Source: Psychrobacter sp. DM4
GTDB taxonomy: Bacteria; Pseudomonadota; Gammaproteobacteria; Pseudomonadales; Moraxellaceae
Length of the DNA: 32,000 nucleotides
Assembly (NCBI RefSeq): GCF_051307035.1
Contig: NZ_CP195537.1
Location: 1-32,000, forward strand
Direction: 5' to 3'
The position numbers and the translations under genes are program-made. Of the stretch, positions 3,253-17,403 are shown piece by piece. The number at the start of each line of letters is the position of its first letter. The first letter of the stretch is position 1. The notes under the pieces were generated by a model, which worked only from the letters and a program-made list of their open reading frames with translations, ran no database searches and was not told where the DNA came from.

Positions 3253-6123
3253 ATGCTTGACGTTCATCCATCAAAGAAAAAAGCCATTGAGCACCACCGA
3301 GGCCCGCTATTGATCATTGCGGGCCCGGGATCTGGGAAAACTTATACCCTAGTTGAGCGCATCATGAACCTCATTCATGTACATAGTGCAAAACCAGAAC
3401 AGTTGCTTGTTGTTACTTTCACAGAAAAAGCGGCGCAAGAGCTGAAGACGCGTATTTCTAATCGCTTGTTAGAACTAGGGTCTTTGTTCAATGTGAACGA
3501 GATGTACTTGGGGACATTTCACTCGATATGTTTGCGCATTCTCGAAGAGTATCGCGATTTCACGCGACTTAAGCGCAGTTTTGTGCTTATGGATCAGTTC
3601 GATCAACAGTATTTTTTGTATCAAAGACTACGCGATTTTAAAGATATCGAGGGCATAGAACATATTCAAGGCGAGCACAAGATTCCTGCATGGGCAAAGT
3701 CTGAGAATCTGCTTGGTTGGTTAAATAAGGCGTCAGAAGAGGTTCTTGATATCGACAAACTGGTTGCTTCACCAGATGAAGCGATCTCTGCGCTTGGCGA
3801 GGCCTATAAGGTTTATCAAGAGCTTTTATTGAATGAGAACGCCTTAGATTTTTCTTGTATTCAACTTGAAACACTCGTGCTTCTGCAGCAGCATCCACAT
3901 ATCTTGGAAGAATTGACTACTAAAATTACTTATTTGATGGTTGATGAATATCAAGATACTAATACCATTCAAGAGTATTTACTGCAGCTATTAATGGGTG
4001 CCAAGCGTAATTTGTGTGTAGTGGGAGATGACGACCAAGCTCTTTATCGTTTCCGCGGTGCAAGTGTGCGAAACATCCTAGAGTTTCCAGCTCAGTTTGC
4101 TCCAAATGAGTGTGAACAAGTAAAGTTATCGATTAATTATCGTTCGCACCCTGATATTGTTAACTTTTACGACTCATATATGGGAGATAAACCTTGGCTA
4201 CGCGAAGGTGTTAATTATCGTTATGCTAAAACAATACGCCCGCGCGATGGTGAGTTTAAAGCAGGGCCTACCGTCGTCAGTGCGATTACACCAGAAGGTG
4301 ATGATTGGCATGAAGACGTCTACCAAATTCTCATGCATCTAAAACAAAACGGTAAACTAACGGACTGGAATCAAGCAGCATTTTTATTTCGTTCCGTGAA
4401 ATCAGATAAGGTTCGAGCACTTGCTCAGTCTTTAGAAGAGAAAGGCATTCCGGTTTATTCTCCGCGTGCGAATCTATTTTTCGAGCGAGAAGAAATCTGT
4501 TACATGTTAGGTGCGTTTAATTTGGTTTTCCCTATGGTGATGGCCGAGCGTAAGAAAAAAATAGCTGATGGACGTAAGCTCCCTATATGGGATTATTATA
4601 CCAATCATTGCTTAGCACCGTTTATAGCCAAGTTAAAAGAACCAGAACAAGCAGATTTGCTCAGATGGTGCCAGCAAAAAGCGAAAGCGCACATAGGTCT
4701 AACCAAGAATGCTGATTCAGCTTTTCTCGGCCTGTTTTATGAGTTATTGCAGTTTCCTTTATTCTCAAACTACCTTGAACAACACAGCGGCAACGAACGC
4801 GCTCAGCGTAACCTTGCTCAGCTAAGTCGAATGCTTGGTAAGTTTGAATATTTGCACCGAGTCAGTGTTCTGAACCCCAAATACTTACTGTCTAACCTAA
4901 CGTCCTTATTTGATAATTTTCTAAAATTTTTATTTGAAGGGGGGATAGATGAATACGAGGATATGTCCGAATATGCACCATCAGGATGCGTGTCCTTCTT
5001 AACCATTCACCAGTCTAAAGGATTAGAATTTCCGATTGTTTTTGTCGGTTCACTTGAAGGTGTTCCGCGTAAACAATACACCGACCTTGATGAGATTATT
5101 GAACATCAATACATGGCCAAACCTCCTTTTGAGCCACTAGATGACACTAAGTATTTCGATTTTTGGCGTTTGTTCTATACCGCTTTTTCGAGGCCGCAAA
5201 ACTTATTGGTCCTAACAGGGCAAGAAAAATCAGGACATGGCAAAACACCTTCCAGACATTTCACGGATTACACCACACAGCTACCTTATTGGCGCGATGT
5301 AAAGCACAAGCTTGCTGAAATAGAGTTCGAGCAAGTAAAAGATGTGAATATCAAGCATGAGTATGCCTTTACCTCTCACATTACCTTATTCGAGACCTGC
5401 GCAGAGCAATATCGATTATTCAAAGAGCTCGAGTTCCAACCTGTAAAGGCAAGCCCTATGCTATTTGGTACTTTAATTCATGAGACCCTAGAGGATGTCC
5501 ATAAGTCGGCAATTCGTGGTGAAACGGATATACTCACGAAAGATAATATTAAAAGTTGGTTACTGAGTAACTACGAGAACTTAGCTAATCGTGAACGTAT
5601 GTATTTAGGGGAGTCGACATTAGGTGCGGCACTAAAACATGTAATGCGTTATGTCGAGCGAAAGGGTAGTGATTGGTCCGACATACAAGAAACTGAATTT
5701 GATATCTCGTTAGTCAAAGAACGTTATGTGTTAACCGGTAGCGTAGATTTGATTAAAGGGGAAGGAGACAGCGTTGAGATCGTTGATTTCAAATCAGAGC
5801 GTAAGCCAAATATGGAAAAAGACAGAGAGCGCATCTTGCATCACCAGCGTCAGTTAGAAATTTATGCGTATTTGGTAGAAGCAAATAGCGATTACAAAGT
5901 TAGTAAGATGCATTTGTATTTTACTGGCGAAACAACCGGCTTACCGACCATTAGTTTTAATAAAAACATCTCAGCAATTGACCATACTATTCATCAATTT
6001 GATAGTATTGTCGACAAAATTGAAAGCAAAGATTTCTCACTGAAAGCTCGACCAGATAAAACCTGTGTAGATTGCAGCGCACGCGCCTATTGCGACCGAA
6101 AAAATTGGACATTTTGTGCTTAG
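3253..6123 (+). CDS. UvrD/PcrA-family SF1 helicase fused to a C-terminal 4-Cys PD-(D/E)XK (Cas4/AddB-like) nuclease
   Basis: Helicase motifs: AGPGSGKT (3319-3342), VVTFTEKAAQEL, GTFHS, DEYQDTN, VGDDDQALYRFRGA, INYRS, TIHQSKGLEFPIVFV, YTAFSRPQNLLVL. C-terminal nuclease motifs: ETCAEQY, GTLIHETLE, VDLIKGEGDSVEIVDFKS, QLEIYAYL, CVDCSARAYC. Confidence 0.85.
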   Translation: MLDVHPSKKKAIEHHRGPLLIIAGPGSGKTYTLVERIMNLIHVHSAKPEQLLVVTFTEKAAQELKTRISNRLLELGSLFNVNEMYLGTFHSICLRILEEYRDFTRLKRSFVLMDQFDQQYFLYQRLRDFKDIEGIEHIQGEHKIPAWAKSENLLGWLNKASEEVLDIDKLVASPDEAISALGEAYKVYQELLLNENALDFSCIQLETLVLLQQHPHILEELTTKITYLMVDEYQDTNTIQEYLLQLLMGAKRNLCVVGDDDQALYRFRGASVRNILEFPAQFAPNECEQVKLSINYRSHPDIVNFYDSYMGDKPWLREGVNYRYAKTIRPRDGEFKAGPTVVSAITPEGDDWHEDVYQILMHLKQNGKLTDWNQAAFLFRSVKSDKVRALAQSLEEKGIPVYSPRANLFFEREEICYMLGAFNLVFPMVMAERKKKIADGRKLPIWDYYTNHCLAPFIAKLKEPEQADLLRWCQQKAKAHIGLTKNADSAFLGLFYELLQFPLFSNYLEQHSGNERAQRNLAQLSRMLGKFEYLHRVSVLNPKYLLSNLTSLFDNFLKFLFEGGIDEYEDMSEYAPSGCVSFLTIHQSKGLEFPIVFVGSLEGVPRKQYTDLDEIIEHQYMAKPPFEPLDDTKYFDFWRLFYTAFSRPQNLLVLTGQEKSGHGKTPSRHFTDYTTQLPYWRDVKHKLAEIEFEQVKDVNIKHEYAFTSHITLFETCAEQYRLFKELEFQPVKASPMLFGTLIHETLEDVHKSAIRGETDILTKDNIKSWLLSNYENLANRERMYLGESTLGAALKHVMRYVERKGSDWSDIQETEFDISLVKERYVLTGSVDLIKGEGDSVEIVDFKSERKPNMEKDRERILHHQRQLEIYAYLVEANSDYKVSKMHLYFTGETTGLPTISFNKNISAIDHTIHQFDSIVDKIESKDFSLKARPDKTCVDCSARAYCDRKNWTFCA

Positions 6124-6160
6124 TTTTAGCTAAGTACTTCGAATATTAAGAGAATAAATC

Positions 6161-7981
6161 ATGTCAAACGACCAGATCAATGTAGAACACTACAAATTTG
6201 AGCCCATCAAAGGCTACCCGATGCTGAACTGGCAAGGCAAACGCCCTTTCCGTTCAACACAATACTTCCCCGCTCAACTCAAAGAAGTCTATGGTCAAGA
6301 GGATGATTCAGGCTGGATTAATAAGATTTTCTGGGGTGATAATCTTCAGGTCATGAGTCATTTGCTAAAAGAGTTCCGAGGTAAGGTGGATTTAATTTAT
6401 ATCGACCCACCTTTTGATTCAAAAGCGGACTATAAAAAGGTGATAAAACTCAAGGGTAAAAGTATAACAAACGATGCGAATAGTTTTGAGGAAAAGCAAT
6501 ATACCGATATTTGGTCTAATGATGATTATCTTCAATTTATGTATGAAAGATTAGTTGTTGCTAAAGAGTTATTAGCTGAAGATGGAAAAATAATTGTTCA
6601 TATAGACTATCGAAAGTCCTCACATATAAAATGCATTATGGATGAAGTTTTTGGTTTCGATAGATTTAGAAATGAAATTATTTGGCATTATTCAGGCTGG
6701 CTTAAAGCCAGTACATCTCAATTCGCGAGAAAACATGATAACTTATTGTTCTATGTGAAGAATGATACAGCAAAGATTAATATTACTTATGAGTCTTGGG
6801 TGGATGCTTATTCATTAAAAGAGCTTAAGAAAATGCAGTTTGGTAAAGACACTAAAGGTGATTTCTTTATTGATAATAATCAAAAAATATATTTAATGGA
6901 TATTCTTTCTGGATACTTAGCAAACCGTAAGCAAGCAGTACATGAAGATGATATAGGACAGTTTGTATATGCTGATGGTCGTAATACTAATAAGAGATAT
7001 TTAAAGGATGTGTTGCTTGGAGGTAAAGCTGTAGATGATGTATGGGATATCAAAGCATTAACAACCTCAGCAAATGAGCGAGTAGGTTACCCTACACAAA
7101 AACCTGAAGAGTTAGTTGAGCGTATCATTGAGGCTTGTAGTAATAGTGGTGGATTAGTTTTTGACTTCTTTATGGGCTCAGGAACAACTCAAGCAGTCGC
7201 TCATAAGTTAGGGCGCAAGTTTATAGGTGCTGATATAAACTTAGGAGCAGTTCAAACAACAACTAAAAGGTTATCAAAAGAAAAGGCTAACTTTGAAGTT
7301 TTCAATGTCAATAATTATGAAATTTTCCGCAATCCAGTTGAAGCAAAAGAGTTACTCATAGAAGCTCTAGAAATTCAAAAGCTCGATGCAACTTCAGTCT
7401 ACGACGGTGAAAAAGACGGCTATAAAGTCAAAATAATGCCGGTTAACCGCATTGCGACTAAAGAAGACTTGAATGAGTTAATCGCAAACTTCCCTTACAA
7501 GCAATTTGAGTCGCGTAAAGAAGCCAACCCAAACCAATCAGTAGAAGAAATTATGCTGGTATGTATGGGACATGAGCCAAGTTTAGGGGCAACACTAGAG
7601 AATGAATCAGGCTATAAACTTAAGGTTCAAGTGGTTGACATTCTTCGCGACAAATCTGACCTAACGTTCAAGTACGATTCAGAAGCTGCTATAAAGATCG
7701 AAGGCAATAAATTAGTCGTTGAAGCCTTCTATCCACGTAACTTACTTCAAAAGCTTAGCCAACAAAAAGATGACGTGGAAGAGTGGCGTGAGATGGTCGA
7801 GTCCATAATGATTGACTGGAACTTCGATGGCGCGGTTATGGAACCTGTAGTAATAGATATCCCACCTAAAGATGAATTTGTCGTTGGTGAATATGAGATC
7901 CCAGAAGGTGCTAGCAACATCAAGGTGAAGATCACTGATTTACTTTCGGAATCTTACGAGGAGGTGATCGTTCATGGCTAA
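6161..7981 (+). CDS. Type III Mod-like (beta-class) DNA methyltransferase, probably N6-adenine
   Basis: Motif IV LIYIDPPFDS (aa ~82) precedes motif I VFDFFMGSGTTQAVAHKLGRKFIGADIN (aa ~336), which is the beta-class order. A ~250-aa region separates them (candidate target-recognition domain) and a ~240-aa C-terminal extension follows. The stop overlaps the res ATG. Confidence 0.85.
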   Translation: MSNDQINVEHYKFEPIKGYPMLNWQGKRPFRSTQYFPAQLKEVYGQEDDSGWINKIFWGDNLQVMSHLLKEFRGKVDLIYIDPPFDSKADYKKVIKLKGKSITNDANSFEEKQYTDIWSNDDYLQFMYERLVVAKELLAEDGKIIVHIDYRKSSHIKCIMDEVFGFDRFRNEIIWHYSGWLKASTSQFARKHDNLLFYVKNDTAKINITYESWVDAYSLKELKKMQFGKDTKGDFFIDNNQKIYLMDILSGYLANRKQAVHEDDIGQFVYADGRNTNKRYLKDVLLGGKAVDDVWDIKALTTSANERVGYPTQKPEELVERIIEACSNSGGLVFDFFMGSGTTQAVAHKLGRKFIGADINLGAVQTTTKRLSKEKANFEVFNVNNYEIFRNPVEAKELLIEALEIQKLDATSVYDGEKDGYKVKIMPVNRIATKEDLNELIANFPYKQFESRKEANPNQSVEEIMLVCMGHEPSLGATLENESGYKLKVQVVDILRDKSDLTFKYDSEAAIKIEGNKLVVEAFYPRNLLQKLSQQKDDVEEWREMVESIMIDWNFDGAVMEPVVIDIPPKDEFVVGEYEIPEGASNIKVKITDLLSESYEEVIVHG

Positions 7982-10658
7982 GAACGCCCAAGACAACTTC
8001 GAGTTAAATAACTCGTTTTACGTCCACTTGCATGAATTCTATAAAATTCATCGAGGCACCATACGTAAAAATTACACTCGTCTAAGTAAAGCCTTCTTAG
8101 ACTTCAACGAGCCATCGCGCCCCGGTAGCTTTCTACGTGTGCCTCAGTTCGAAGCTCTAGAAATCTATGTATTCCTAAAGGAGTTCTTAGATAACAAACC
8201 CGTCTTCCAACTATTTGAAGATTGGTATACCAACCAAGGTAAATTTGCAGAGCGAGTATCCGGCATAAGCACTATAGATGGCCAGATCATGCAAGGGGAT
8301 ATGTTCTGGGAGATGTCTGAAACAGACTATAAAGGCATTTTCAAAAAGATGAAAGCCAGTAACGGCGGCCGCCTTTACCCGAACTATATTTTTGCGCTGA
8401 CCATGGGTACTGGAAAAACTATCCTCATGGCCACCTGTATCTTCTATGATTTCTTAGCGGGTAATAAAAAAGGCAAAGATGAGCGTTTTATTCAAAACGC
8501 GCTAATTTTCGCACCGGACAAAACCGTTCTTCAGTCATTACGCGAAATTGAATCCTTCGATCATTCTAAAGTCGTGCCGCCGGAGTACATGCCAATTGTC
8601 GCGGAATTCAAATTTCACTATCTCGAAGATGCTGGTGTCTCGCTCAACACCATGGACGGCTCTAAGTTCAATATCATCGTATCGAATAGCCAGAAAATCA
8701 TCTTACGCCGCGATAGCAAAGGTAAGTCGACGGCCGATAAGCTCTTCAGCTCTGGCAAAGACATGTACCAAGGCCTTGGTGGTGTAGAAGATGAAGCGAT
8801 GGCTATGCTTGGCCTAGATGATGATTCTATCGCTGCCGCGCCTCAAGATGAAGCAGATCTTGTCACTAACCAACGTTTCGAGAAAATCAAGCGGCTTCCT
8901 CAGTTAGGTATCTTTGTTGACGAAGCCCACCACGCATTTGGTGCAAAGCTTGCCAAAGACATGGGTATAAAAGCCGATAATACGGCAAACTCATTGCGCA
9001 AAACAATTGATGAGCTCGCGATAAATTTGAAACAAGCCGGAACTCGAGTGGTGGGGTGTTATAACTACACTGGTACGCCTTATGTAGGTAAAGATGTGTT
9101 GCCAGAAGTGGTTTATGCCTATGGGTTACGCAAGGCGATTGATAACAATTACTTGAAGCAAGTTAAGCTTAATGGCTATAGCAATACGCGCCACGAGGAG
9201 TTTTTAGAGATAGCCATCAATGATTTCTTAGCAAAGGCCGATGAGATTGGACGCCCTGAGAATATACTGCCGAAGATGGCAATTTTTGGTACGACTGTCG
9301 AAGAATTGACGACTGAAATTCGTCCGGCTGTAGAAAAGATACTAGCGAAGCACGGCATATCTTCTGACCGTATATTGATTAACGTCGGTGACGCAAAACA
9401 CACCACTGATGATGATATCCGCGAATTCAACCGTCTAGATAGTCCGAACTCAGAAAAACAGTTCATCTTACTGGTGAATAAAGGCCGAGAAGGTTGGAAC
9501 TGTCGTTCTCTGTTTTCAGTCGCGCTTTATCGTGAACCAAAGTCTAAGGTGTTTATACTTCAAGCGACTATGCGTTGTTTACGTGCCATAGGTGACAGAC
9601 AGCATGTTGGCCATATTTATCTTACTAAAGAAAACATGGCACTTTTGGATAAGGAGCTTCAAGCGAACTTCCGTATCTCAACAGATGAACTTAAAGAACC
9701 TGATCCGAATAAGGAAACGGTACATGTTAGAGTTGAGCAGCCAAGTATCAAGGTGCCAATCAAACGCGTTCGTCGTCAATTCAAGTTAATTGGAAAAGAA
9801 GATTTAAAAGATGGGTATAAGTTAGGGCTTGATAGAGTTGATCTTGATGACTATCGACTTATCCATGAAACCCAGCAAGGGCTATTAATGCCTGATGATA
9901 TTGGAACTGTGAAAAATCGTGCTCGACAAGATCTTTCTTTCCTAAAAGAGCAGCGTACTTTTACCAAACTGTCATTAGTTGCTGATATCGCTCGATATAT
10001 TAATAAACCTTGTTTAGAAATTGAAAAAATTGTCGCAGCTACAGAAGAAGGCTTTGACGGTATCTTAGAGTTGGTGAACAAGTTCAATGAAGTACTGTAC
10101 GACCAAGTGATTCCGCGGCTTTTTAAAGCGATGTACGATATAGAGTCGGAAAGTGTTACTGAAGAGTTTGATGTTGAGTTAGTGAAAGAGCCACCTATAG
10201 ACCCTGGGTATTATCCAGTAACCGTCTCCAAAGATAAGATTATTAGAAAATCATCTTTAGAAATTGCAGAATTAACAGGGAAAAGCTTCCACCTAGACAA
10301 CTACTGTTTCGATTCAAATCCAGAACGTCAGTTCTTTTGGGATATGTTACACGACAAACAAGTTGATAAGATTTGGTTTACCGGAATGTTAACGCATGGA
10401 CAAAGTGACTTTGTGATTCATTACGTAGACACAGAAACGCAGCGCGTACGTAGTTATTACCCTGACTTCCTGATTAAAAAACAAGATGGTTCTTATGTGA
10501 TGGTAGAAGTCAAAGGCGAGCACATGATTGACTCTCAAAACGTAAGAGATAAGAAAGATGCAGCAGAACTTATGGGCGTAGCGTCAGGTATTGGCTACGA
10601 AATAGTTACGGGTAAATCCGCAGACTCAGGAAGCTATGATCGAGCCTTTTTAAACTAA
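7974..10658 (+). CDS. Type III restriction Res-like subunit (SF2 DEAH helicase + C-terminal PD-(D/E)XK nuclease)
   Basis: Motifs: LTMGTGKT (8401-8420), FVDEAHHAFG, YTGTPY, and C-terminal YYPDFLIKKQDGSYVMVEVKG (10454-10519). The ATG overlaps the mod stop (ATGGCTAA) and follows GAGGAGGTG. Confidence 0.85.
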   Translation: MAKNAQDNFELNNSFYVHLHEFYKIHRGTIRKNYTRLSKAFLDFNEPSRPGSFLRVPQFEALEIYVFLKEFLDNKPVFQLFEDWYTNQGKFAERVSGISTIDGQIMQGDMFWEMSETDYKGIFKKMKASNGGRLYPNYIFALTMGTGKTILMATCIFYDFLAGNKKGKDERFIQNALIFAPDKTVLQSLREIESFDHSKVVPPEYMPIVAEFKFHYLEDAGVSLNTMDGSKFNIIVSNSQKIILRRDSKGKSTADKLFSSGKDMYQGLGGVEDEAMAMLGLDDDSIAAAPQDEADLVTNQRFEKIKRLPQLGIFVDEAHHAFGAKLAKDMGIKADNTANSLRKTIDELAINLKQAGTRVVGCYNYTGTPYVGKDVLPEVVYAYGLRKAIDNNYLKQVKLNGYSNTRHEEFLEIAINDFLAKADEIGRPENILPKMAIFGTTVEELTTEIRPAVEKILAKHGISSDRILINVGDAKHTTDDDIREFNRLDSPNSEKQFILLVNKGREGWNCRSLFSVALYREPKSKVFILQATMRCLRAIGDRQHVGHIYLTKENMALLDKELQANFRISTDELKEPDPNKETVHVRVEQPSIKVPIKRVRRQFKLIGKEDLKDGYKLGLDRVDLDDYRLIHETQQGLLMPDDIGTVKNRARQDLSFLKEQRTFTKLSLVADIARYINKPCLEIEKIVAATEEGFDGILELVNKFNEVLYDQVIPRLFKAMYDIESESVTEEFDVELVKEPPIDPGYYPVTVSKDKIIRKSSLEIAELTGKSFHLDNYCFDSNPERQFFWDMLHDKQVDKIWFTGMLTHGQSDFVIHYVDTETQRVRSYYPDFLIKKQDGSYVMVEVKGEHMIDSQNVRDKKDAAELMGVASGIGYEIVTGKSADSGSYDRAFLN

Positions 10659-10814: not shown

Positions 10815-11807
10815 CTAGAAGCCTAGACCTACTTGCTCAGGTGTTGAAAGCCTTTCATTTGATTCTTTCAGGTTGCTAGGTAAGGAGCTATCTATATCCT
10901 TTGGGTTAATTACTATGGCTTGTGGACCATCTTCCTGTATGATTTGTCGATTTAAATCGTACTTAGGATTGTTCTGATAGTCTTCGTTATATATTACAGC
11001 CCGCTTAATACCATATTCTTTAGCTTTCTCCATAGCATGACGGGAACCACTATCTGGTTTAGGATTATTGGGATCAAGGCTTGTTTTACAATAACTAGCG
11101 CTCAATACGACTAAATCACTAAAAAGCGCTTGCAGACGATCTCTCTTTACATATCTACCTGCTTGTTCTCTAAAGTTAGCAGATGAAGGTGACGTTAAAT
11201 ACTCAGTAATTAGCAAACCTTGGTTTTCAACAATTTCACGAGCCAAATCTATGTTTTGAGCTGGTAAGATATTATTTAACGGGCTGGGTAAGATAGCAAC
11301 AGTTCGAGCGTTTAATGCTAGTGCCTTTCTATGCGAGATGCTATCACAGCCATCTGCTAAGCCACTGACAATTGTGGCATCTTGTTTTTTGATGAACTGT
11401 TCAACTACCAGGTTTTCATCAACCTCGGTTTCTTTATCTGGATTGAGCACACCAATAACAGCAACATTATAATTATCAGGAGATAGTAAATCCAAATCTC
11501 CTTTGTAGAACAAGAAGCTTGGGATATCACCTTTTTTCTTTAGTTCTCGACGAAGAGTTGGGTAGTTATCATCGCCTATTGCTACCACACCATCACAACT
11601 ATCGCCTAAGTTTTCAATCAAACGTTCAAGCCTAGCCTTCATTTCTAAAAAAGCTTGCTCTGTTACGCTGGCATCCTTTGCCGCAATGAGCTCTACAATA
11701 GCTTCATAAGGGATCTTAGTTGTTAGATTATTATTTAACCATGCCTCCCCTATACCTTTGAAGGTGCGAGCTGTTAAAACATTTAAAGCATGATCTGTTA
11801 TTTTCAT
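10815..11807 (-). CDS. Accessory DprA/Smf-family (SLOG superfamily) protein
   Basis: Contains the DprA Rossmann-core signatures NYPTLRREL, VAVIG, IVSGLADGCDSISHRKAL (11319-11366), TVAILPSPLNNILPAQN, GLLITEY, KRDRLQALFSDLVVLSAS and SGSRHAMEKAKEYGIKRAVI. The N-terminal ~70 aa include a KGIGEAW segment as in DprA N-domains. Confidence 0.8.
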   Translation of the reverse strand: MKITDHALNVLTARTFKGIGEAWLNNNLTTKIPYEAIVELIAAKDASVTEQAFLEMKARLERLIENLGDSCDGVVAIGDDNYPTLRRELKKKGDIPSFLFYKGDLDLLSPDNYNVAVIGVLNPDKETEVDENLVVEQFIKKQDATIVSGLADGCDSISHRKALALNARTVAILPSPLNNILPAQNIDLAREIVENQGLLITEYLTSPSSANFREQAGRYVKRDRLQALFSDLVVLSASYCKTSLDPNNPKPDSGSRHAMEKAKEYGIKRAVIYNEDYQNNPKYDLNRQIIQEDGPQAIVINPKDIDSSLPSNLKESNERLSTPEQVGLGF

Positions 11808-11845
11808 TGAAAGCCTACTTGTAAAAATATATTTATTTCAATAAT

Positions 11846-12523
11846 TTAGTTACGATTTGCAGCAAAAACTATTTCGTCTGGGAGGTCATCTGGAAACGTA
11901 TAGTGTGGTACACGAGCAATGCTAAAAAAAGTAACGTCCTTCGCACCACAATCTAATAGACATTGAATAGCATCTTCGTCTATATTGACATTTTTTGTAT
12001 AAATATCATCAATTAATAGTACGTGTTTTCCTCTTACTTTTTCCGAAATATCACAAGTATCTCTAGTAATACCGATATAAGGCATACTGCCACCTCCACC
12101 ACCTATTGAACTACGAGATAAGTGAGTGGTACAGGTATCAGTATGACGAACTATAAAGTCGCTACCATCCACTAATTTATTCTTCGAATGTATGACCAAC
12201 GGAATTATTTCTCTAATAGCTTCAGCAAACTTTAACTGTGTGCCATTGTAGGTATTGAGGTTTTTTGACCTAGGTACGACACATATAGTGACTTCATCAT
12301 CTTCTATATTAGATAGTATGCTTGAAAGTTCATTTGCAAGATTGAACTTAACTGAGTTTTTAGCAGCTAATAATTTAGATGGGTACTCATTACCAAACGT
12401 GTTTTTTAAAATATTAAGATAGTTAGGGTTACTAGGTTTATTAAGCCCATAATATGCACAGCGATAGAATGATTTTATATCTTTGTTCAAATACTCGTTT
12501 TTTACGATGGTGTATTGATTCAC
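11846..12523 (-). CDS. ComF-like type I phosphoribosyltransferase-fold protein with degenerate PRPP loop
   Basis: GKHVLLIDDIYTKNVNIDEDAIQCLLDCGAKDVTFFSIARV has the PRTase beta-strand plus acidic pair, but the usual T-T-G-x-T is replaced by TKNVN. CVVPRSK matches ComF-like proteins, and there is an unusual SSIGGGGGS loop. GTG start at 12521-12523 lies 7 nt after GAGGA. No N-terminal Cys cluster. Confidence 0.7.
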   Translation of the reverse strand: MNQYTIVKNEYLNKDIKSFYRCAYYGLNKPSNPNYLNILKNTFGNEYPSKLLAAKNSVKFNLANELSSILSNIEDDEVTICVVPRSKNLNTYNGTQLKFAEAIREIIPLVIHSKNKLVDGSDFIVRHTDTCTTHLSRSSIGGGGGSMPYIGITRDTCDISEKVRGKHVLLIDDIYTKNVNIDEDAIQCLLDCGAKDVTFFSIARVPHYTFPDDLPDEIVFAANRN

Positions 12524-12537
12524 GTCTTAATCCTCGC

Positions 12538-13083
12538 TTATAAGCTGATCTTGGTTATGTTTTTATTTGGTATTCCAGCTATATTGGCGTGGAGTACTTC
12601 ATTCTCATCATCCTCAAAAACGAGAACCTTTGTAGAGCAAATATTGATTTCATTAAGTGCATATTGATACTTATTGTGTATATCCTTGCAAAAAAAGATT
12701 TTATCGAACAATTTAGCGCAGTTGTGATGATCAAGAAGCTGAATAACCCTTTCAGGAGAAGCTTTAGTTACTAAACATACCTTAGTAGTGTTCTTATTAC
12801 TAATTAAGAAATTAATTAGCTCTTTATTAAGGTAGGTATGATCTAAAAACTGTGAGTTATACCCAATCTTTTCTTTTTGGATTTTTTCGGCTAATACCTC
12901 ATCAGTGCAGTACTTATCAACCACTTCTTTAGTGATTCTTTTTACTACAGGAATTTTTATGTATGGCATGTAGGAATCAATTGCTTTTTTATAAGCTGAA
13001 TTATTAGCTTGGTCAGTATGAATCAAGGTGCCATCCAAATCGGTTAATATTGCTTGAATATTGTTCAATATATCGTGCCTCAT
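12538..13083 (-). CDS. HAD-superfamily hydrolase (phosphatase-like)
   Basis: Motif I is ILTDLDGTLIHTD, motif II LVTKAS, motif III a K in HNKYQ, and motif IV VFEDDENE. The track start at 13086 is TTG, so I use the adjacent ATG at 13081-13083. Confidence 0.8.
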   Translation of the reverse strand: MRHDILNNIQAILTDLDGTLIHTDQANNSAYKKAIDSYMPYIKIPVVKRITKEVVDKYCTDEVLAEKIQKEKIGYNSQFLDHTYLNKELINFLISNKNTTKVCLVTKASPERVIQLLDHHNCAKLFDKIFFCKDIHNKYQYALNEINICSTKVLVFEDDENEVLHANIAGIPNKNITKISL

Positions 13084-13141
13084 CAATAAGTACAGGCTAG
13101 CTTAGTGTATGGTCTATATCTATTCTACGAACTGTACCTAC

Positions 13142-13519
13142 CTACTTTGGAATATCCTGTCTTTTAAGTAATATTGCATCAAAATCAATGTAATTACTAA
13201 CCTTTAAAATATTTTCACTCTCTAGAACTTCAATACAACTACCTGAAACCATATTTTTTAGTTCGCTATCGTGCTTATCATACTGTTCATCCAATACATG
13301 CTTAATGAGGTCTATATTTCTGGAATCTTCAAGCAGGTAGTTTGCTAAATACGAAGATAAGCTACTAGTGAACATATTTATGACTGACTCTTGAGTGACA
13401 GTGCTAACGGTTTCTACCATGGACGTTATTTCAGCCGGTGTTCTTACTGAGATAGTTGAGTAGTGCTCGTCGTTAGTGGCTTTTTGTGCCTCATGGAATT
13501 TTTCAAATAGTGAAGTCAT
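13142..13519 (-). CDS. Hypothetical protein, possible ribbon-helix-helix-like N-terminal domain (125 aa)
   Basis: AGGAAA lies 6 nt before the ATG. ISVRTPAEITSMVETVSTVTQESVINMFTSSL has a strand-helix-helix pattern and resembles the corresponding segment of the upstream 153-aa protein. No family recognised. Confidence 0.5.
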   Translation of the reverse strand: MTSLFEKFHEAQKATNDEHYSTISVRTPAEITSMVETVSTVTQESVINMFTSSLSSYLANYLLEDSRNIDLIKHVLDEQYDKHDSELKNMVSGSCIEVLESENILKVSNYIDFDAILLKRQDIPK

Positions 13520-13574
13520 TAGTGTTTCCTAGTTATTTATAAAATATTTACTTATTACCGACTTTAAAATTAGG

Positions 13575-14036
13575 TTATCCTTGTTGTATCTTCGCCTTAC
13601 TTCTATCAAGTAATTCTTTCAGGTTCTTCAAAGACTGTTCTGCTTGGCCTGATTTTAACCCCTCATTCAAGACATGCATTTGGTTTTCCAACAAACTCTC
13701 TGGATGGACAATGCTACGACTGATATTCCATAATTCCCACGAGAAATTTCTATTAGATTTAGTACTATTCTTACTTAGAAATTCAGCATATTCAGTTATG
13801 AGTAGTGCCTCCTCACTTGAGCACTGTCGCAAAAAATCTTTCAACGTTTCTTCAATAAAATCATTGATGATCTGTGAGCGAGACACGCCATTGCGTTTAG
13901 CAATCGCATCAATAATTAACAAATCAAGATTGTTAAACCTCATATTAAACTTTCTAAATTCCGGCTTATCAAAAGCTGTGGTTGACTCTTCCAACTTATC
14001 AAAAGCCTCTTCATGAAATTCGATTTTTAAACTCAT
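13575..14036 (-). CDS. Hypothetical protein with ribbon-helix-helix-like domain (153 aa)
   Basis: FNMRFNNLDLLIIDAIAKRNGVSRSQIINDFIEETL fits the CopG/Arc-type beta-alpha-alpha pattern, followed by a helical C-terminal half. ATG at 14034-14036. Confidence 0.5.
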   Translation of the reverse strand: MSLKIEFHEEAFDKLEESTTAFDKPEFRKFNMRFNNLDLLIIDAIAKRNGVSRSQIINDFIEETLKDFLRQCSSEEALLITEYAEFLSKNSTKSNRNFSWELWNISRSIVHPESLLENQMHVLNEGLKSGQAEQSLKNLKELLDRSKAKIQQG

Positions 14037-14124
14037 AGATCTTGCCTTTATATTGATAACAAATAATTATGGGTATTTGAAACTACTACTGTTTTGTATA
14101 TATTTTATACGGATACATTGGTTG

Positions 14125-14310
14125 CTAACCTTTTTCGAGTCGCTTCATAAGGTCGAGCAGACTGTTATATAAGCCTTCTACTTCAGCTTTCTTTAAAACG
14201 ACCTTGTCTGAATTTTTTATATCCGTTCCACAGCTTAATGCTAGAGCAACCACTGGACTAGAAATATTGCGTTGTTTTTGTCGAACTTGGCAATGTTTAG
14301 TAGCTTTCAT
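14125..14310 (-). CDS. Small hypothetical protein (61 aa); weak resemblance to the N-terminal half of DUF4258-like proteins
   Basis: Strong SD (AAGGAG 7 nt before the ATG at 14308-14310). TKHCQVRQKQRNISSPVVALAL recalls the H..R..(Q/E)R.IS motif, from memory and unverified. Confidence 0.45.
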   Translation of the reverse strand: MKATKHCQVRQKQRNISSPVVALALSCGTDIKNSDKVVLKKAEVEGLYNSLLDLMKRLEKG

Positions 14311-14364
14311 AATAATACTCCTTGGTAGTTTTAATATTTATTCAAATTATTACTTTTATAATAG

Positions 14365-14619
14365 TTAATAACATACTTTTAACTTACTCATGCCAGGCTT
14401 TCTATTCATAGAGTTGTTATGATAGGTTGTGATAATATTATCTTCTGCAACTATCAAAGTAATTCCACCGGTTCTTCTTAAAAATTCAATATCTTTAAGA
14501 AGCTTTTTTAGCTTCTTTATTGCCGCCTTGCTTTCCTTTGGTGTCATTCCTTGTATATCCTGCCCTAAACCACTTGCCTTAAGGATTTTATCAGTATATT
14601 TCAACGTATTACTATTCAT
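14365..14619 (-). CDS. Small hypothetical protein (84-91 aa)
   Basis: The track start at 14640 is TTG and the first ATG is at 14617-14619 (MNSNTL...). Neither has a good SD, so the start is uncertain. The basic helical KKLKKLLKDIEFLRR is followed by ITLIVAEDNIITTYH. Confidence 0.4.
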   Translation of the reverse strand: MNSNTLKYTDKILKASGLGQDIQGMTPKESKAAIKKLKKLLKDIEFLRRTGGITLIVAEDNIITTYHNNSMNRKPGMSKLKVCY

Positions 14620-14812
14620 AATAGGACCTATAAATTTCAAGAAGATAGTTTCTATTGATTGAACAACCTATGGATTACAGTATGATACATACTAATATAA
14701 TAGTCAATATATGAATAAATATAAATTCAAATAATAAATAAATTTTTAAGAGAACTAGATATCCAACTCTCTGAACCTATCAATAGACTATACCCAAAAC
14801 ATAAAACCTTTA

Positions 14813-14881
14813 AATGATAATCTATCTATCATTAGACTTTTTTATATTATTAAATGATAGTAATATCTTGTTATTATCAAT
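14813..14881. promoter_or_regulatory. Two inverted-repeat sites built from AATGATA half-sites (candidate res/operator) in the divergent intergenic region
   Basis: Site A: AATGATA (14813-14819) + 7 nt + TATCATT (14827-14833), perfect. Site B: AATGATA (14853-14859) + 15 nt + TATCAAT (14875-14881), 6/7. Both lie 40-105 bp upstream of the resolvase ATG. Confidence 0.35.
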
Positions 14882-14919
14882 GAGCACTAATTATTAAGTC
14901 TAAATAATAGAGGTGGGTT

Positions 14920-15819: not shown

Positions 15820-17403
15820 ATGATGAACACCCCTACCTCAGACCCTATTGGCGCAGCATGGCTTATCCGTCATGCAAGCATCGAGCTGGTTTCGCCTTTA
15901 TATGTCAGCAGTAGTATCGGTGGGCGCAGACAAACCTATAAAGACGGTGACGTCATTCATAACGCTTATCAGGAAACCGCGCGTCCACTGGACACAATCA
16001 TTGCGCACTTACAATTTCACATGCGTCATGAAGTACTGAGTTTAGAGTTACTGACTCGTCTGTTTGAGCAGATAGGGGCTGATGATGTACAAGCATGGGT
16101 AAACGCTGAGCCCACAGGCAGCTATGCCCGTAGAATGGCTTTCTTGTATGAATGGCTCATGGGTCAGCAGTTAGCAGTACCGAGTAATTTAGGCGGTAAC
16201 TATGTGGACGCTTTAGATGCTAAGAAGCAGGTTACTTCAAGCCCTGCGCATGTCATCAAGAATGCTCGTTGGCGTATCAATGACAATCTAGCAGGAACCC
16301 GTCATTTCTGTCCGATACTGGTGAAAACAGAGGCCTTTACGCAAGCAGCTGCACTCGATATTGCCACAATGGTTGACAAACTTAACGATGAATTTGGGCA
16401 AGACTTACTGATGCGCGCCTCCGTATGGATGACCCTACGGGAAAGCAAAGCGAGCTTTACTATAGAAGGTGAGGGAAAAGAGTTAAAACGTATTGAACGT
16501 TTTGCCGATGTAATGGCACGGCGTACCGGCAAGGGCGATATTCCGCTTGATCCTGAGTCGCTAGCAGAGTTGCAACAAGAGATACTTGGTAGCAAAACGG
16601 TCATCCAGCAGTATGGCGTCCGTCAATCTCCAGTTTTTGTGTCGCATACTCAGGTCAATGGCTTTAAAGAGATTGTGCACTATATTGCGCCACCTGCTGA
16701 TGACATTGCTGAAAAGCTCAAAGGGTTACAGGCATTTATGGAAAAGACCGAGGGACAATCGGCACTGATACGTAGTGCGGTTGCTTCCTTTGCTTTTGTG
16801 TATATTCATCCGCTAGCGGATGGCAATGGCCGAGTACATCGCTTCCTAATTAACGATGTACTCAGACGCGACCAGATCATTCATGAGCCGATTATCTTAC
16901 CTATATCGCAAGCCATCGCTGAGCATCCCTCAGACCGTCATGCCTATGATAAAATTTTAGACCGTGTATCCGTGCCACTTATGGAGCAAATCCGTGATCA
17001 TTACAGCTTTGATAAACAAGCGATTACTTACCCTGATGGTATTCGCTCAAACTTAAATTTTGGAAATACTCACCTAATTCAACCTGCATGGCGCTTTATG
17101 GATCTAACGCCTCACGTTCAGTACTTATCAGGACTCATTGCTCATGTTATTGAAAAAGAGATGCATAACGAGTCACAGTACCTAAGAAAGCATGACCATG
17201 CACGACTGGCGATAAAAGAGATTGTTGAGATGCCCAACAGCTATGCCGATAGAATCATTCGCAGTATGCTGCAAAATAAGGGTGCTAAAAGTAATAAGTT
17301 ACTTAAGGATTATCCATTTTTAACAAATGATGAGGTTTGGGACGATATTTTCTCTGTCGTTGTAGAGACCTTTAAAGATGAGACAGATGAATTGAATAGG
17401 TAG
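15820..17403 (+). CDS. Fic/DOC-family protein (class II, internal inhibitory helix)
   Basis: The Fic motif HPLADGNGRVHR lies at 16807-16842 (aa 330-341). The alpha-inh-type motif SFTIEG lies at 16453-16470 (aa 212-217), N-terminal of the core. Confidence 0.85.
   Translation: MMNTPTSDPIGAAWLIRHASIELVSPLYVSSSIGGRRQTYKDGDVIHNAYQETARPLDTIIAHLQFHMRHEVLSLELLTRLFEQIGADDVQAWVNAEPTGSYARRMAFLYEWLMGQQLAVPSNLGGNYVDALDAKKQVTSSPAHVIKNARWRINDNLAGTRHFCPILVKTEAFTQAAALDIATMVDKLNDEFGQDLLMRASVWMTLRESKASFTIEGEGKELKRIERFADVMARRTGKGDIPLDPESLAELQQEILGSKTVIQQYGVRQSPVFVSHTQVNGFKEIVHYIAPPADDIAEKLKGLQAFMEKTEGQSALIRSAVASFAFVYIHPLADGNGRVHRFLINDVLRRDQIIHEPIILPISQAIAEHPSDRHAYDKILDRVSVPLMEQIRDHYSFDKQAITYPDGIRSNLNFGNTHLIQPAWRFMDLTPHVQYLSGLIAHVIEKEMHNESQYLRKHDHARLAIKEIVEMPNSYADRIIRSMLQNKGAKSNKLLKDYPFLTNDEVWDDIFSVVVETFKDETDELNR

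Follow-up and report, generated by a model that had tools for sequence, protein, structure and literature searches.

What does a bacterium encode in an AT-rich run of seven genes that ends in a hydrolase, a phosphoribosyltransferase (PRTase) and a relative of the DNA-processing protein DprA? Such a run lies on the minus strand of the stretch of DNA analysed here (hereafter the window; 32,000 nucleotides, positions 1 to 32,000 of contig NZ_CP195537.1 of Psychrobacter sp. DM4), and an earlier note, made from its sequence alone, took the seven genes for a single operon and a candidate undescribed conflict system centred on nucleotides or single-stranded DNA (ssDNA). We consider it quite likely that the last three genes (HAD hydrolase, PRTase and DprA-like protein; 13086–10815) are a three-gene, split-toxin form of the anti-phage toxin–antitoxin family ShosTA, and that the four genes upstream (g1–g4; 14640–13142) are a separate plasmid cassette of Moraxellaceae. 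The general idea of a conflict system thus holds, whereas 'undescribed' does not, since the PRTase and the DprA-like protein correspond to the ShosTA pair.

The ShosTA family and the last three genes

The original description of shosTA is said to be that of Kimelman et al. in 2012. ShosTA is a named and validated anti-phage toxin–antitoxin system with solved structures (Millman et al. 2022, 10.1101/2022.05.11.491447; Rousset et al. 2022, PMC9122126; PMC11961720; PMC12961424), those of the system of Escherichia coli APEC O1 being 8ZVA–8ZVD and 9VZO (PMC11961720, Pu et al. 2025; PMC12961424, Yang et al. 2026). In this strain, ShosT (424 aa) joins an N-terminal Rossmann-fold hydrolase (residues 1–164) to a PRTase (165–424); the N-terminal domain resembles a HAD-family pyrophosphatase of B. 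thetaiotaomicron and hydrolyses pyrophosphate (PPi) in vitro, and D331 and D332 of the PRTase bind the ribose of phosphoribosyl pyrophosphate (PRPP) and are essential for toxicity (PMC11961720, PMC12961424). ShosA does not bind ShosT; it acts via ssDNA binding and RecA, and also rescues from an unrelated DNA-damaging toxin (PMC11961720, PMC12961424).

The last gene of the block (11807–10815, minus strand) encodes the DprA-like protein (330 aa), a predicted antitoxin of the ShosA type, which matches the PADLOC ShosA profile PDLC03961 over nearly its full length (residues 17–294 of 330; E 1.9e-48) and the solved ShosA chains 8zva and 9vzo at E 1e-15; its match to PADLOC PsyrA is weaker than that to ShosA (E 3.5e-16). 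The protein passes the cut-off of Pfam DNA_processg_A (107.9 bits; cut-off 29.6), stays below that of the curated NCBIfam model dprA (TIGR00732; 100.1 versus 191.15 bits) and has an insignificant Pfam match to the SLOG cluster (E 0.26). Its R222, the equivalent of R234 of E. coli ShosA, is kept in 76 of 76 clade sequences.

Directly ahead of it, the PRTase gene (12523–11846, minus strand; 225 aa from a GTG) encodes the predicted toxin, which we assign to the ShosT type on the basis of PADLOC, Foldseek and its homologues. The protein matches the PADLOC ShosT profile PDLC03962 (E 6.5e-12, residues 46–207), and the best match of its AlphaFold model (predicted local distance difference test, pLDDT, 85.8) in a Foldseek search of the PDB is ShosT with bound PRPP (8zvc; E 1.5e-4), which covers the whole query in 232 columns; ordinary PRTases align to the model over about 160–173 columns only. 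The match to PADLOC PsyrT (E 0.048) is confined to the last 45 profile positions, and the score against NCBIfam comF (TIGR00201) is far from the cut-off (21.2 versus 233.55 bits; E 2e-4). The zinc finger of ComFC, which the earlier note had described as absent from this protein, is indeed lacking: neither the window protein nor the alignment of its homologues has a four-Cys motif at the N-terminus.

The same note had called the PRTase degenerate on account of its replaced phosphate loop, and here we come to the opposite view. We found 750 homologues of the PRTase, and in an alignment of 34 homologues that are 43–87% identical to it, the acidic pair D172/D173 is invariant and sits at the LLIDD strand–loop position typical of PRTases, and the DDIYTKNVNIDED segment and RHTDTxTTH vary little or not at all. 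Because it is kept across the 34 homologues, the loop is a conserved signature of a non-canonical PRTase and not a sign of decay; ShosT has likewise been described as having non-canonical loops. Judging by the fold rather than by direct alignment, D172/D173 would be the equivalents of D331/D332 of E. coli ShosT. The GGGGGS run falls in a variable, low-confidence flexible loop. One member of the PRTase family (P0283; 622 aa) has a cold-shock domain at its N-terminus as well as Sel1 repeats.

The remaining gene of the trio (13086–12538, minus strand), which stands first in it, encodes a HAD-IA type hydrolase of 182 aa, or probably 181 aa if translation starts, as in relatives, at the ATG at 13083 instead of the TTG. 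This assignment draws on Pfam, AlphaFold and the gene neighbourhood: the protein passes the cut-offs of HAD_2 (43.4 bits; cut-off 23.8) and of TIGR01509 (29.9; cut-off 29.4), and its AlphaFold model (pLDDT 91) is matched by capped HAD-IA phosphatases at a template modelling (TM) score of about 0.7. Motif I, DxDGT (D16-L-D18-G-T20), is kept in 65 of 70 homologues, the motif II threonine T107 in 62 and the motif IV glutamate E158 in 65, and the catalytic residues are, to judge from this conservation, under selection. The motifs that had been quoted for all three proteins are present in their translations.

The trio is a conserved neighbourhood elsewhere, as the earlier note's proposal supposed. 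A pattern scan of one genome per species gave 229 loci encoding a relative of the PRTase, of which 80 were kept, and neighbourhoods were counted over 81 independent loci with a homologous PRTase. HAD, PRTase and DprA genes are adjacent, in this order and on one strand, in 62 of the 81; HAD and PRTase are merged into a single open reading frame (ORF) of about 400 aa in four (L018, L019, L041 and L058; Paludibacteraceae and other Bacteroidales), and PRTase and DprA into one of about 545 aa in two (L011 2475–4112 and L022 4992–6632; Leptospira and a metagenome-assembled genome (MAG) of WOR-3). The PRTase gene lies directly upstream of the DprA gene on the same strand in 79 loci, the other two being the fusions. 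The HAD gene went undetected in ten, five of which have too little upstream sequence to judge. The loci with a PRTase relative come from Pseudomonadota, Bacteroidota, Campylobacterota, Spirochaetota, Deferribacterota, Chloroflexota, Patescibacteria and a Methanosarcinales MAG. The PRTase–DprA fusion, with toxin and antitoxin in one chain, also occurs in the library representative P0202.

An exhaustive profile search with the PRTase over 1.84 billion representatives returned 460 family members and further fusions. About 14 of the best 150 representatives are 386–427 aa long with the PRTase in the C-terminal half; four of these were scanned, two of them passing or nearly passing the Pfam HAD_2 cut-off and two having no Pfam match. 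Four longer representatives (498–584 aa) carry HAD_2 ahead of the PRTase, and the fused HAD–PRTase representatives include P0197 and P0206. A profile of such fused proteins picks up, along with other HAD-IA enzymes, the inorganic pyrophosphatase of the HAD family from B. thetaiotaomicron (3qu2 and related entries; E about 2e-4). The simplest reading of the trio is a ShosTA clade with a split toxin.

Set beside E. coli ShosTA, the window has a HAD-like hydrolase, a PRTase and a DprA-like antitoxin in equal order, a PRTase with the acidic pair and long loops, a ShosA that is homologous at the sequence level and a defence-island setting. It differs in that the hydrolase, a fused domain of 164 aa in E. 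coli, is a separate gene for a 181-aa capped HAD-IA protein with DxDGT, placed 14 bp upstream, and in that the PRTase is shorter (225 versus about 260 aa) and too divergent for a sequence match to the E. coli ShosT chain. A stand-alone PRTase is also found in the DprA and PRTase pair of P2-like prophage hotspots (PMC9122126; for example Salmonella phage SopEPhi orf14–orf15), in which a short, 193-aa PRTase is followed by ShosA and which matches PDLC03962 and PDLC03961 as the window proteins do; this type has no HAD gene, and where the window family has DDIYTKNVNIDED, the PRTase of this pair retains the canonical DDxxTTGgT PRPP loop. PsyrTA (RqlHI) likewise pairs a DprA-like antitoxin with a PRTase-containing toxin, but the PsyrT profile spans 689 positions with the PRTase at its C-terminal end, against 225 aa in the window, and there is no HAD gene. 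The competence proteins ComFC and DprA share the PRTase fold and the DprA Rossmann core with the window pair, which differs by its scores below the curated cut-offs, its lack of a zinc finger, its toxin–antitoxin layout and its place on mobile elements.

The earlier note recognised no named defence system in this gene set, and had said that a match of the proteins to a known, named system would tell against its proposal. The PADLOC profiles of ShosT and ShosA, the ShosA structures and the Foldseek match to 8zvc provide that match, and the statement is refuted because the PRTase and the DprA-like protein match ShosTA.

Upstream genes and surrounding DNA

The ORF check confirms seven co-directional minus-strand ORFs with gaps of 14–88 bp, namely 54, 88, 55, 55, 14 and 38 bp in order from g1 to the DprA-like gene. 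The letters also bear out the description of the HAD–PRTase junction: the HAD stop TAA (12540–12538) is followed within the 14-bp gap by GAGGA (12535–12531) and, 7 nt further on, by the PRTase GTG at 12523, a start supported by the homologues, because they begin with MNQYTIVKN. A terminator-like hairpin (10812–10775, minus strand) closes the unit 3 nt past the ShosA stop. It is real, as had been claimed, but the 11-bp stem assigned to it was too short, the computed fold having 17 pairs (12 perfect, one G-U and four further) with a folding energy of -25.4 kcal/mol (z = -7.0; none of 200 shuffles folds equally well), followed by the T-rich tail TCTCTCTATT. The block is also, as noted by eye before, richer in AT than its surroundings, with a GC content of 0.346; the left flank has 0.405, the right one 0.434 and the whole window 0.405.

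The four upstream genes stand apart from the trio. The first, g1 (14640–14365, minus strand; 91 aa from a TTG, probably 84 aa from the ATG at 14619 that relatives use), resembles the C-terminal half of a DUF4258-like protein and g2 (14310–14125, minus strand; 61 aa) the N-terminal half: g1 matches residues 51–81 of a 91-aa protein of the Acinetobacter plasmid pANC7912.2 (L104 4206–4481), the N-terminal half of which matches g2. A g2 homologue of Moraxella osloensis (44% identical) passes the cut-off of Pfam DUF4258 (PF14076; 28.9 bits, cut-off 25, positions 1–47 of 71); the window g2 itself has no significant Pfam match. The order of the pair is swapped in the window, with the gene like the C-terminal half standing first. 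For g3 (14036–13575, minus strand; 153 aa), possibly a ribbon-helix-helix (RHH) or antitoxin-like DNA binder, all family matches are sub-threshold (RHH_1 E 0.009, BrnA antitoxin E 3e-4, RelB E 0.01), and the family is small, with 45 homologue clusters confined to Moraxellaceae, one of them 100% identical to g3 and from Psychrobacter sp. DM4. The last cassette gene, g4 (13519–13142, minus strand; 125 aa), gave no match in family searches. The earlier view of two RHH-like paralogues is not borne out, with only g3 having weak sub-threshold RHH or antitoxin matches; paralogy of g3 and g4 was rejected at a BLASTP E-value of 40.

Relatives of g1–g4 (about 84, 61, 153 and 120 aa) recur on plasmids and contigs of Psychrobacter, Moraxella and Acinetobacter, usually beside a divergent resolvase; copies lie at 13142–14640 in the window and at L092 5432–6874, L094 5435–6924, L103 4478–5937 and L104 4206–5279. 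What follows the cassette varies. Its usual successor elsewhere is a protein of about 520–544 aa that has no Pfam or PADLOC match, with DarT and a NADAR-type partner behind it in one case. A Moraxella osloensis plasmid, which has a viperin gene as well, carries a methyltransferase, an AlkB-like oxygenase and a single-stranded DNA-binding protein (SSB) in this place, and an Acinetobacter plasmid a 273-aa protein, beside a HaeII-type restriction–modification system. In two of these loci Sel1-repeat proteins come after the protein of about 520 aa (L094 8974–9900; L100 8962–9450). Among trio loci, relatives of g1–g4 appear only in those with DNA 85–90% identical to the window, and in none of about 70 distant ones. 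DNA homology between the window and L092 extends over the resolvase region (88%) and g1–g4 (71%) and ends inside or at the end of g4. Therefore g1–g4 is a separate cassette and not part of the conserved ShosTA unit; it resembles a conserved leader module behind which the genes can be exchanged. The seven genes do not hold together as one functional unit as first supposed, with g1–g4 joining the trio only in close Psychrobacter relatives and preceding other genes elsewhere. As in DUF4258/RHH-type small modules of Moraxellaceae plasmids, the g2 family passes DUF4258, g3 has weak RHH-, BrnA- and RelB-like matches and a toxin-like gene stands ahead of an antitoxin-like one; the window differs from such modules by the split protein in swapped order, the extra conserved g4 and the variable genes that follow.

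The defence-island context that had been read from the sequence is upheld, with a restriction-like operon on one side of the block and a resolvase and a Fic protein on the other, in surroundings that are both plasmid-like and defence-like and include ParA; lspA, ccm genes and a heavy-metal ATPase lie farther off in the window. The restriction-like operon (3253–10658) has three genes, for a 956-aa fusion of a UvrD helicase and a PD-(D/E)xK nuclease, a 606-aa N6/N4 methyltransferase and an 894-aa ResIII/TnsA-like nuclease that matches type III restriction endonuclease models weakly, and adjoins the ShosTA block also in the related metagenomic contigs L001–L005. The match of the Fic-domain protein (15820–17403; 527 aa) to the PADLOC candidate defence family PDC-S24 spans the entire protein (E 3e-176); that to SoFic is weaker. 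In a near-identity DNA search of the block against plasmids, the sole match was a 125-bp stretch upstream of the resolvase (14776–14900), in the AT-rich divergent region between it and g1. Unannotated DNA of seven Psychrobacter plasmids and of one Acinetobacter plasmid is 89–98% identical to this stretch, which may be a res site or promoter region.

Elsewhere the trio keeps varied company. In Conchiformibius steedae it stands by itself between housekeeping genes, and it adjoins an Abi family gene on plasmid pSYLB of Synechocystis sp. PCC 6714 (L105 3385–5601), where RefSeq labels it 'HAD hydrolase-like protein / hypothetical protein / DNA-processing protein DprA' and not ShosTA. A PADLOC scan of 119 flanking proteins, which records presence only and has neither a baseline nor an enrichment statistic, found Gabija, retron reverse transcriptase, Cas1 and AriA-like genes in the flanks of trio loci. 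A Prolixibacteraceae chromosome (OY782875.1) has two copies of the trio (L083 and L089; at about 2.18 and 2.25 Mb), about 70 kb apart.

Predicted mechanism and rival explanations

By analogy with the E. coli systems, the PRTase would be the toxin, binding PRPP via its acidic pair and loops and disturbing purine and nucleotide metabolism; the expected outcome is replication stress, duplications, damaged DNA, filamentation and, for the infected cell, arrest or death. The HAD enzyme may hydrolyse the PPi released by the PRTase and so pull the reaction forward. ShosA would serve as a type IV antitoxin that does not bind the toxin and instead counters the damage via ssDNA binding and RecA-linked recombination. 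Infection may trigger the system by host shut-off combined with an unstable ShosA, by phage ssDNA that titrates the ShosA–RecA interaction, or by both. The ShosTA trio sits behind g1–g4 as one of the several sets of genes that can follow this cassette. The present analysis establishes to which families the proteins belong, the conserved order of the genes, the fusion and fission of the three parts, the conservation of the catalytic motifs, the strong hairpin and the modular boundary behind g4, whereas the toxicity, the action of the antitoxin, the trigger and the pyrophosphatase role are carried over from E. coli work.

Several observations weigh against this picture or parts of it. That the mechanism is predicted for the window clade from E. 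coli systems is itself one of them. The match of the PRTase model to 8zvc has a modest TM-score (0.47) and an E-value similar to those of ordinary PRTases and ComF, and the E. coli ShosT chain was reached at E thresholds of 1 to 10 neither by phmmer with the PRTase nor by a 34-sequence profile, a fused relative or an 18-sequence fused profile. In the antitoxin, L121 (VIGVLNP; codon 11445–11447) occupies the position of E. coli ShosA R139, with Leu there in 74 of 79 clade members, whereas R139 is essential for ssDNA binding and antitoxin activity in E. coli (PMC11961720, PMC12961424). About five loci with room upstream have no detectable HAD gene and neither has the ShosT of P2 phages, so the HAD protein is dispensable in some lineages; the top 50 PDB matches of its model in Foldseek are all generic capped HAD-IA phosphatases, ShosT being absent among them; and in E. 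coli ShosT the R56A substitution in the pyrophosphatase site lowers toxicity marginally, which gives the pyrophosphatase role weak support (PMC11961720, PMC12961424). We infer from architecture, fusion and fission, rather than from demonstrated homology, that the HAD protein is the free-standing counterpart of the E. coli ShosT N-terminal domain, because its model matches generic HAD-IA enzymes and no sequence bridge leads to ShosT. A nucleotidase or detoxifying role is equally possible; its chemistry could be that of a pyrophosphatase, a nucleotidase or a safeguard.

Could all seven genes instead form one composite system, with g1–g4 as a regulatory or sensing module that serves the trio here and other effectors elsewhere? 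Their common direction and short gaps would suit it, as would the lack of any terminator-like site found between g4 and HAD, and the cassette precedes other defence-type genes too (the 520-aa protein, then DarT/NADAR). Moreover, in Psychrobacter sanguinis g1, g3 and g4 accompany the trio in another context, a chromosomal one, with a DNA identity of about 70%, and because of this a functional link such as shared transcription is possible. We nevertheless think such a system unlikely: the distant trio loci, about 70 in number, are without g1–g4, the trio stands alone elsewhere by context, homology between elements breaks at the end of g4, the genes behind the Moraxella osloensis cassette are not obvious defence effectors, and the promoter scan of the block (19 sites versus 19.6 expected) is uninformative. 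A related and rather tentative thought, which we hold to be improbable overall but worth stating, is that g1–g4 is a portable docking or control unit of Moraxellaceae plasmids and islands for interchangeable sets beside a resolvase/res region (which may comprise the ShosTA trio, the 520-aa protein with DarTG, and the methyltransferase/AlkB/SSB set) and, separately, that HAD is a third component of ShosTA in its own right, perhaps a nucleotidase or a further safeguard, and not simply a helper that removes PPi.

The two alternatives put forward in the earlier note fare worse. In a pathway that modifies nucleosides or nucleotides, the PRTase would convert a base to a nucleoside monophosphate and HAD would convert this to a nucleoside, the product being active and sensed by the DprA/SLOG-like protein. 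The complete HAD motif set, in a protein no less similar to sugar-phosphate and nucleotide phosphatases than to pyrophosphatases, is compatible with this, the acceptor substrate of ShosT is not established even in E. coli, and the pyrophosphatase mutant there has the marginal effect given above. Yet E. coli ShosA works via ssDNA and RecA rather than by sensing a ligand and rescues from an unrelated toxin, the SLOG-cluster match is insignificant, no further biosynthetic genes are linked to the trio, and the HAD-less ShosTA of P2 hotspots defends against phage (PMC9122126), which together make the pathway very unlikely. More doubtful still, to the point of being hardly credible, is a mobile-element copy of the ComFC and DprA transformation pair that handles incoming ssDNA. 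Similarity to ComF is weak and that to the DprA Rossmann core clear, and ComF of H. pylori is among the Foldseek matches of the PRTase model, but both proteins score far under the curated cut-offs (21 versus 234 bits for comF and 100 versus 191 for dprA), the zinc finger is missing, the ShosT and ShosA profiles fit much better, and members of the family, which come from many taxa with Patescibacteria and an archaeal MAG among them, are always found as this cassette, often next to defence genes. The competence and biosynthetic-cluster readings were rejected on curated cut-offs and gene context.

What the split form means

ShosTA itself is known already, and the trio is an instance of a known system that adds no new defence principle. 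New here is the three-gene split-toxin architecture, of which a full-text search of the literature available found no description and which is apparently the majority form in the clade of the window PRTase; new also are the clade-specific substitution in ShosA, which has Leu where E. coli has its essential R139, and the natural toxin–antitoxin fusions. The least explained part of the locus is the portable g1–g4 cassette with its interchangeable downstream genes, and if the docking idea were true, the g1–g4 locus would be a defence hotspot of a new kind or else a shared regulator-sensor. For annotation, defence-finding tools handle ShosTA as two genes and RefSeq labels miss the trio.

A large clade of wide phylogenetic spread in which hydrolase, PRTase and antitoxin are three genes provides a ready-made genetic dissection of the ShosTA toxin, with every part open to separate expression or deletion. 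The split clade and the natural fusions also argue that the hydrolase is a selected component of ShosTA.

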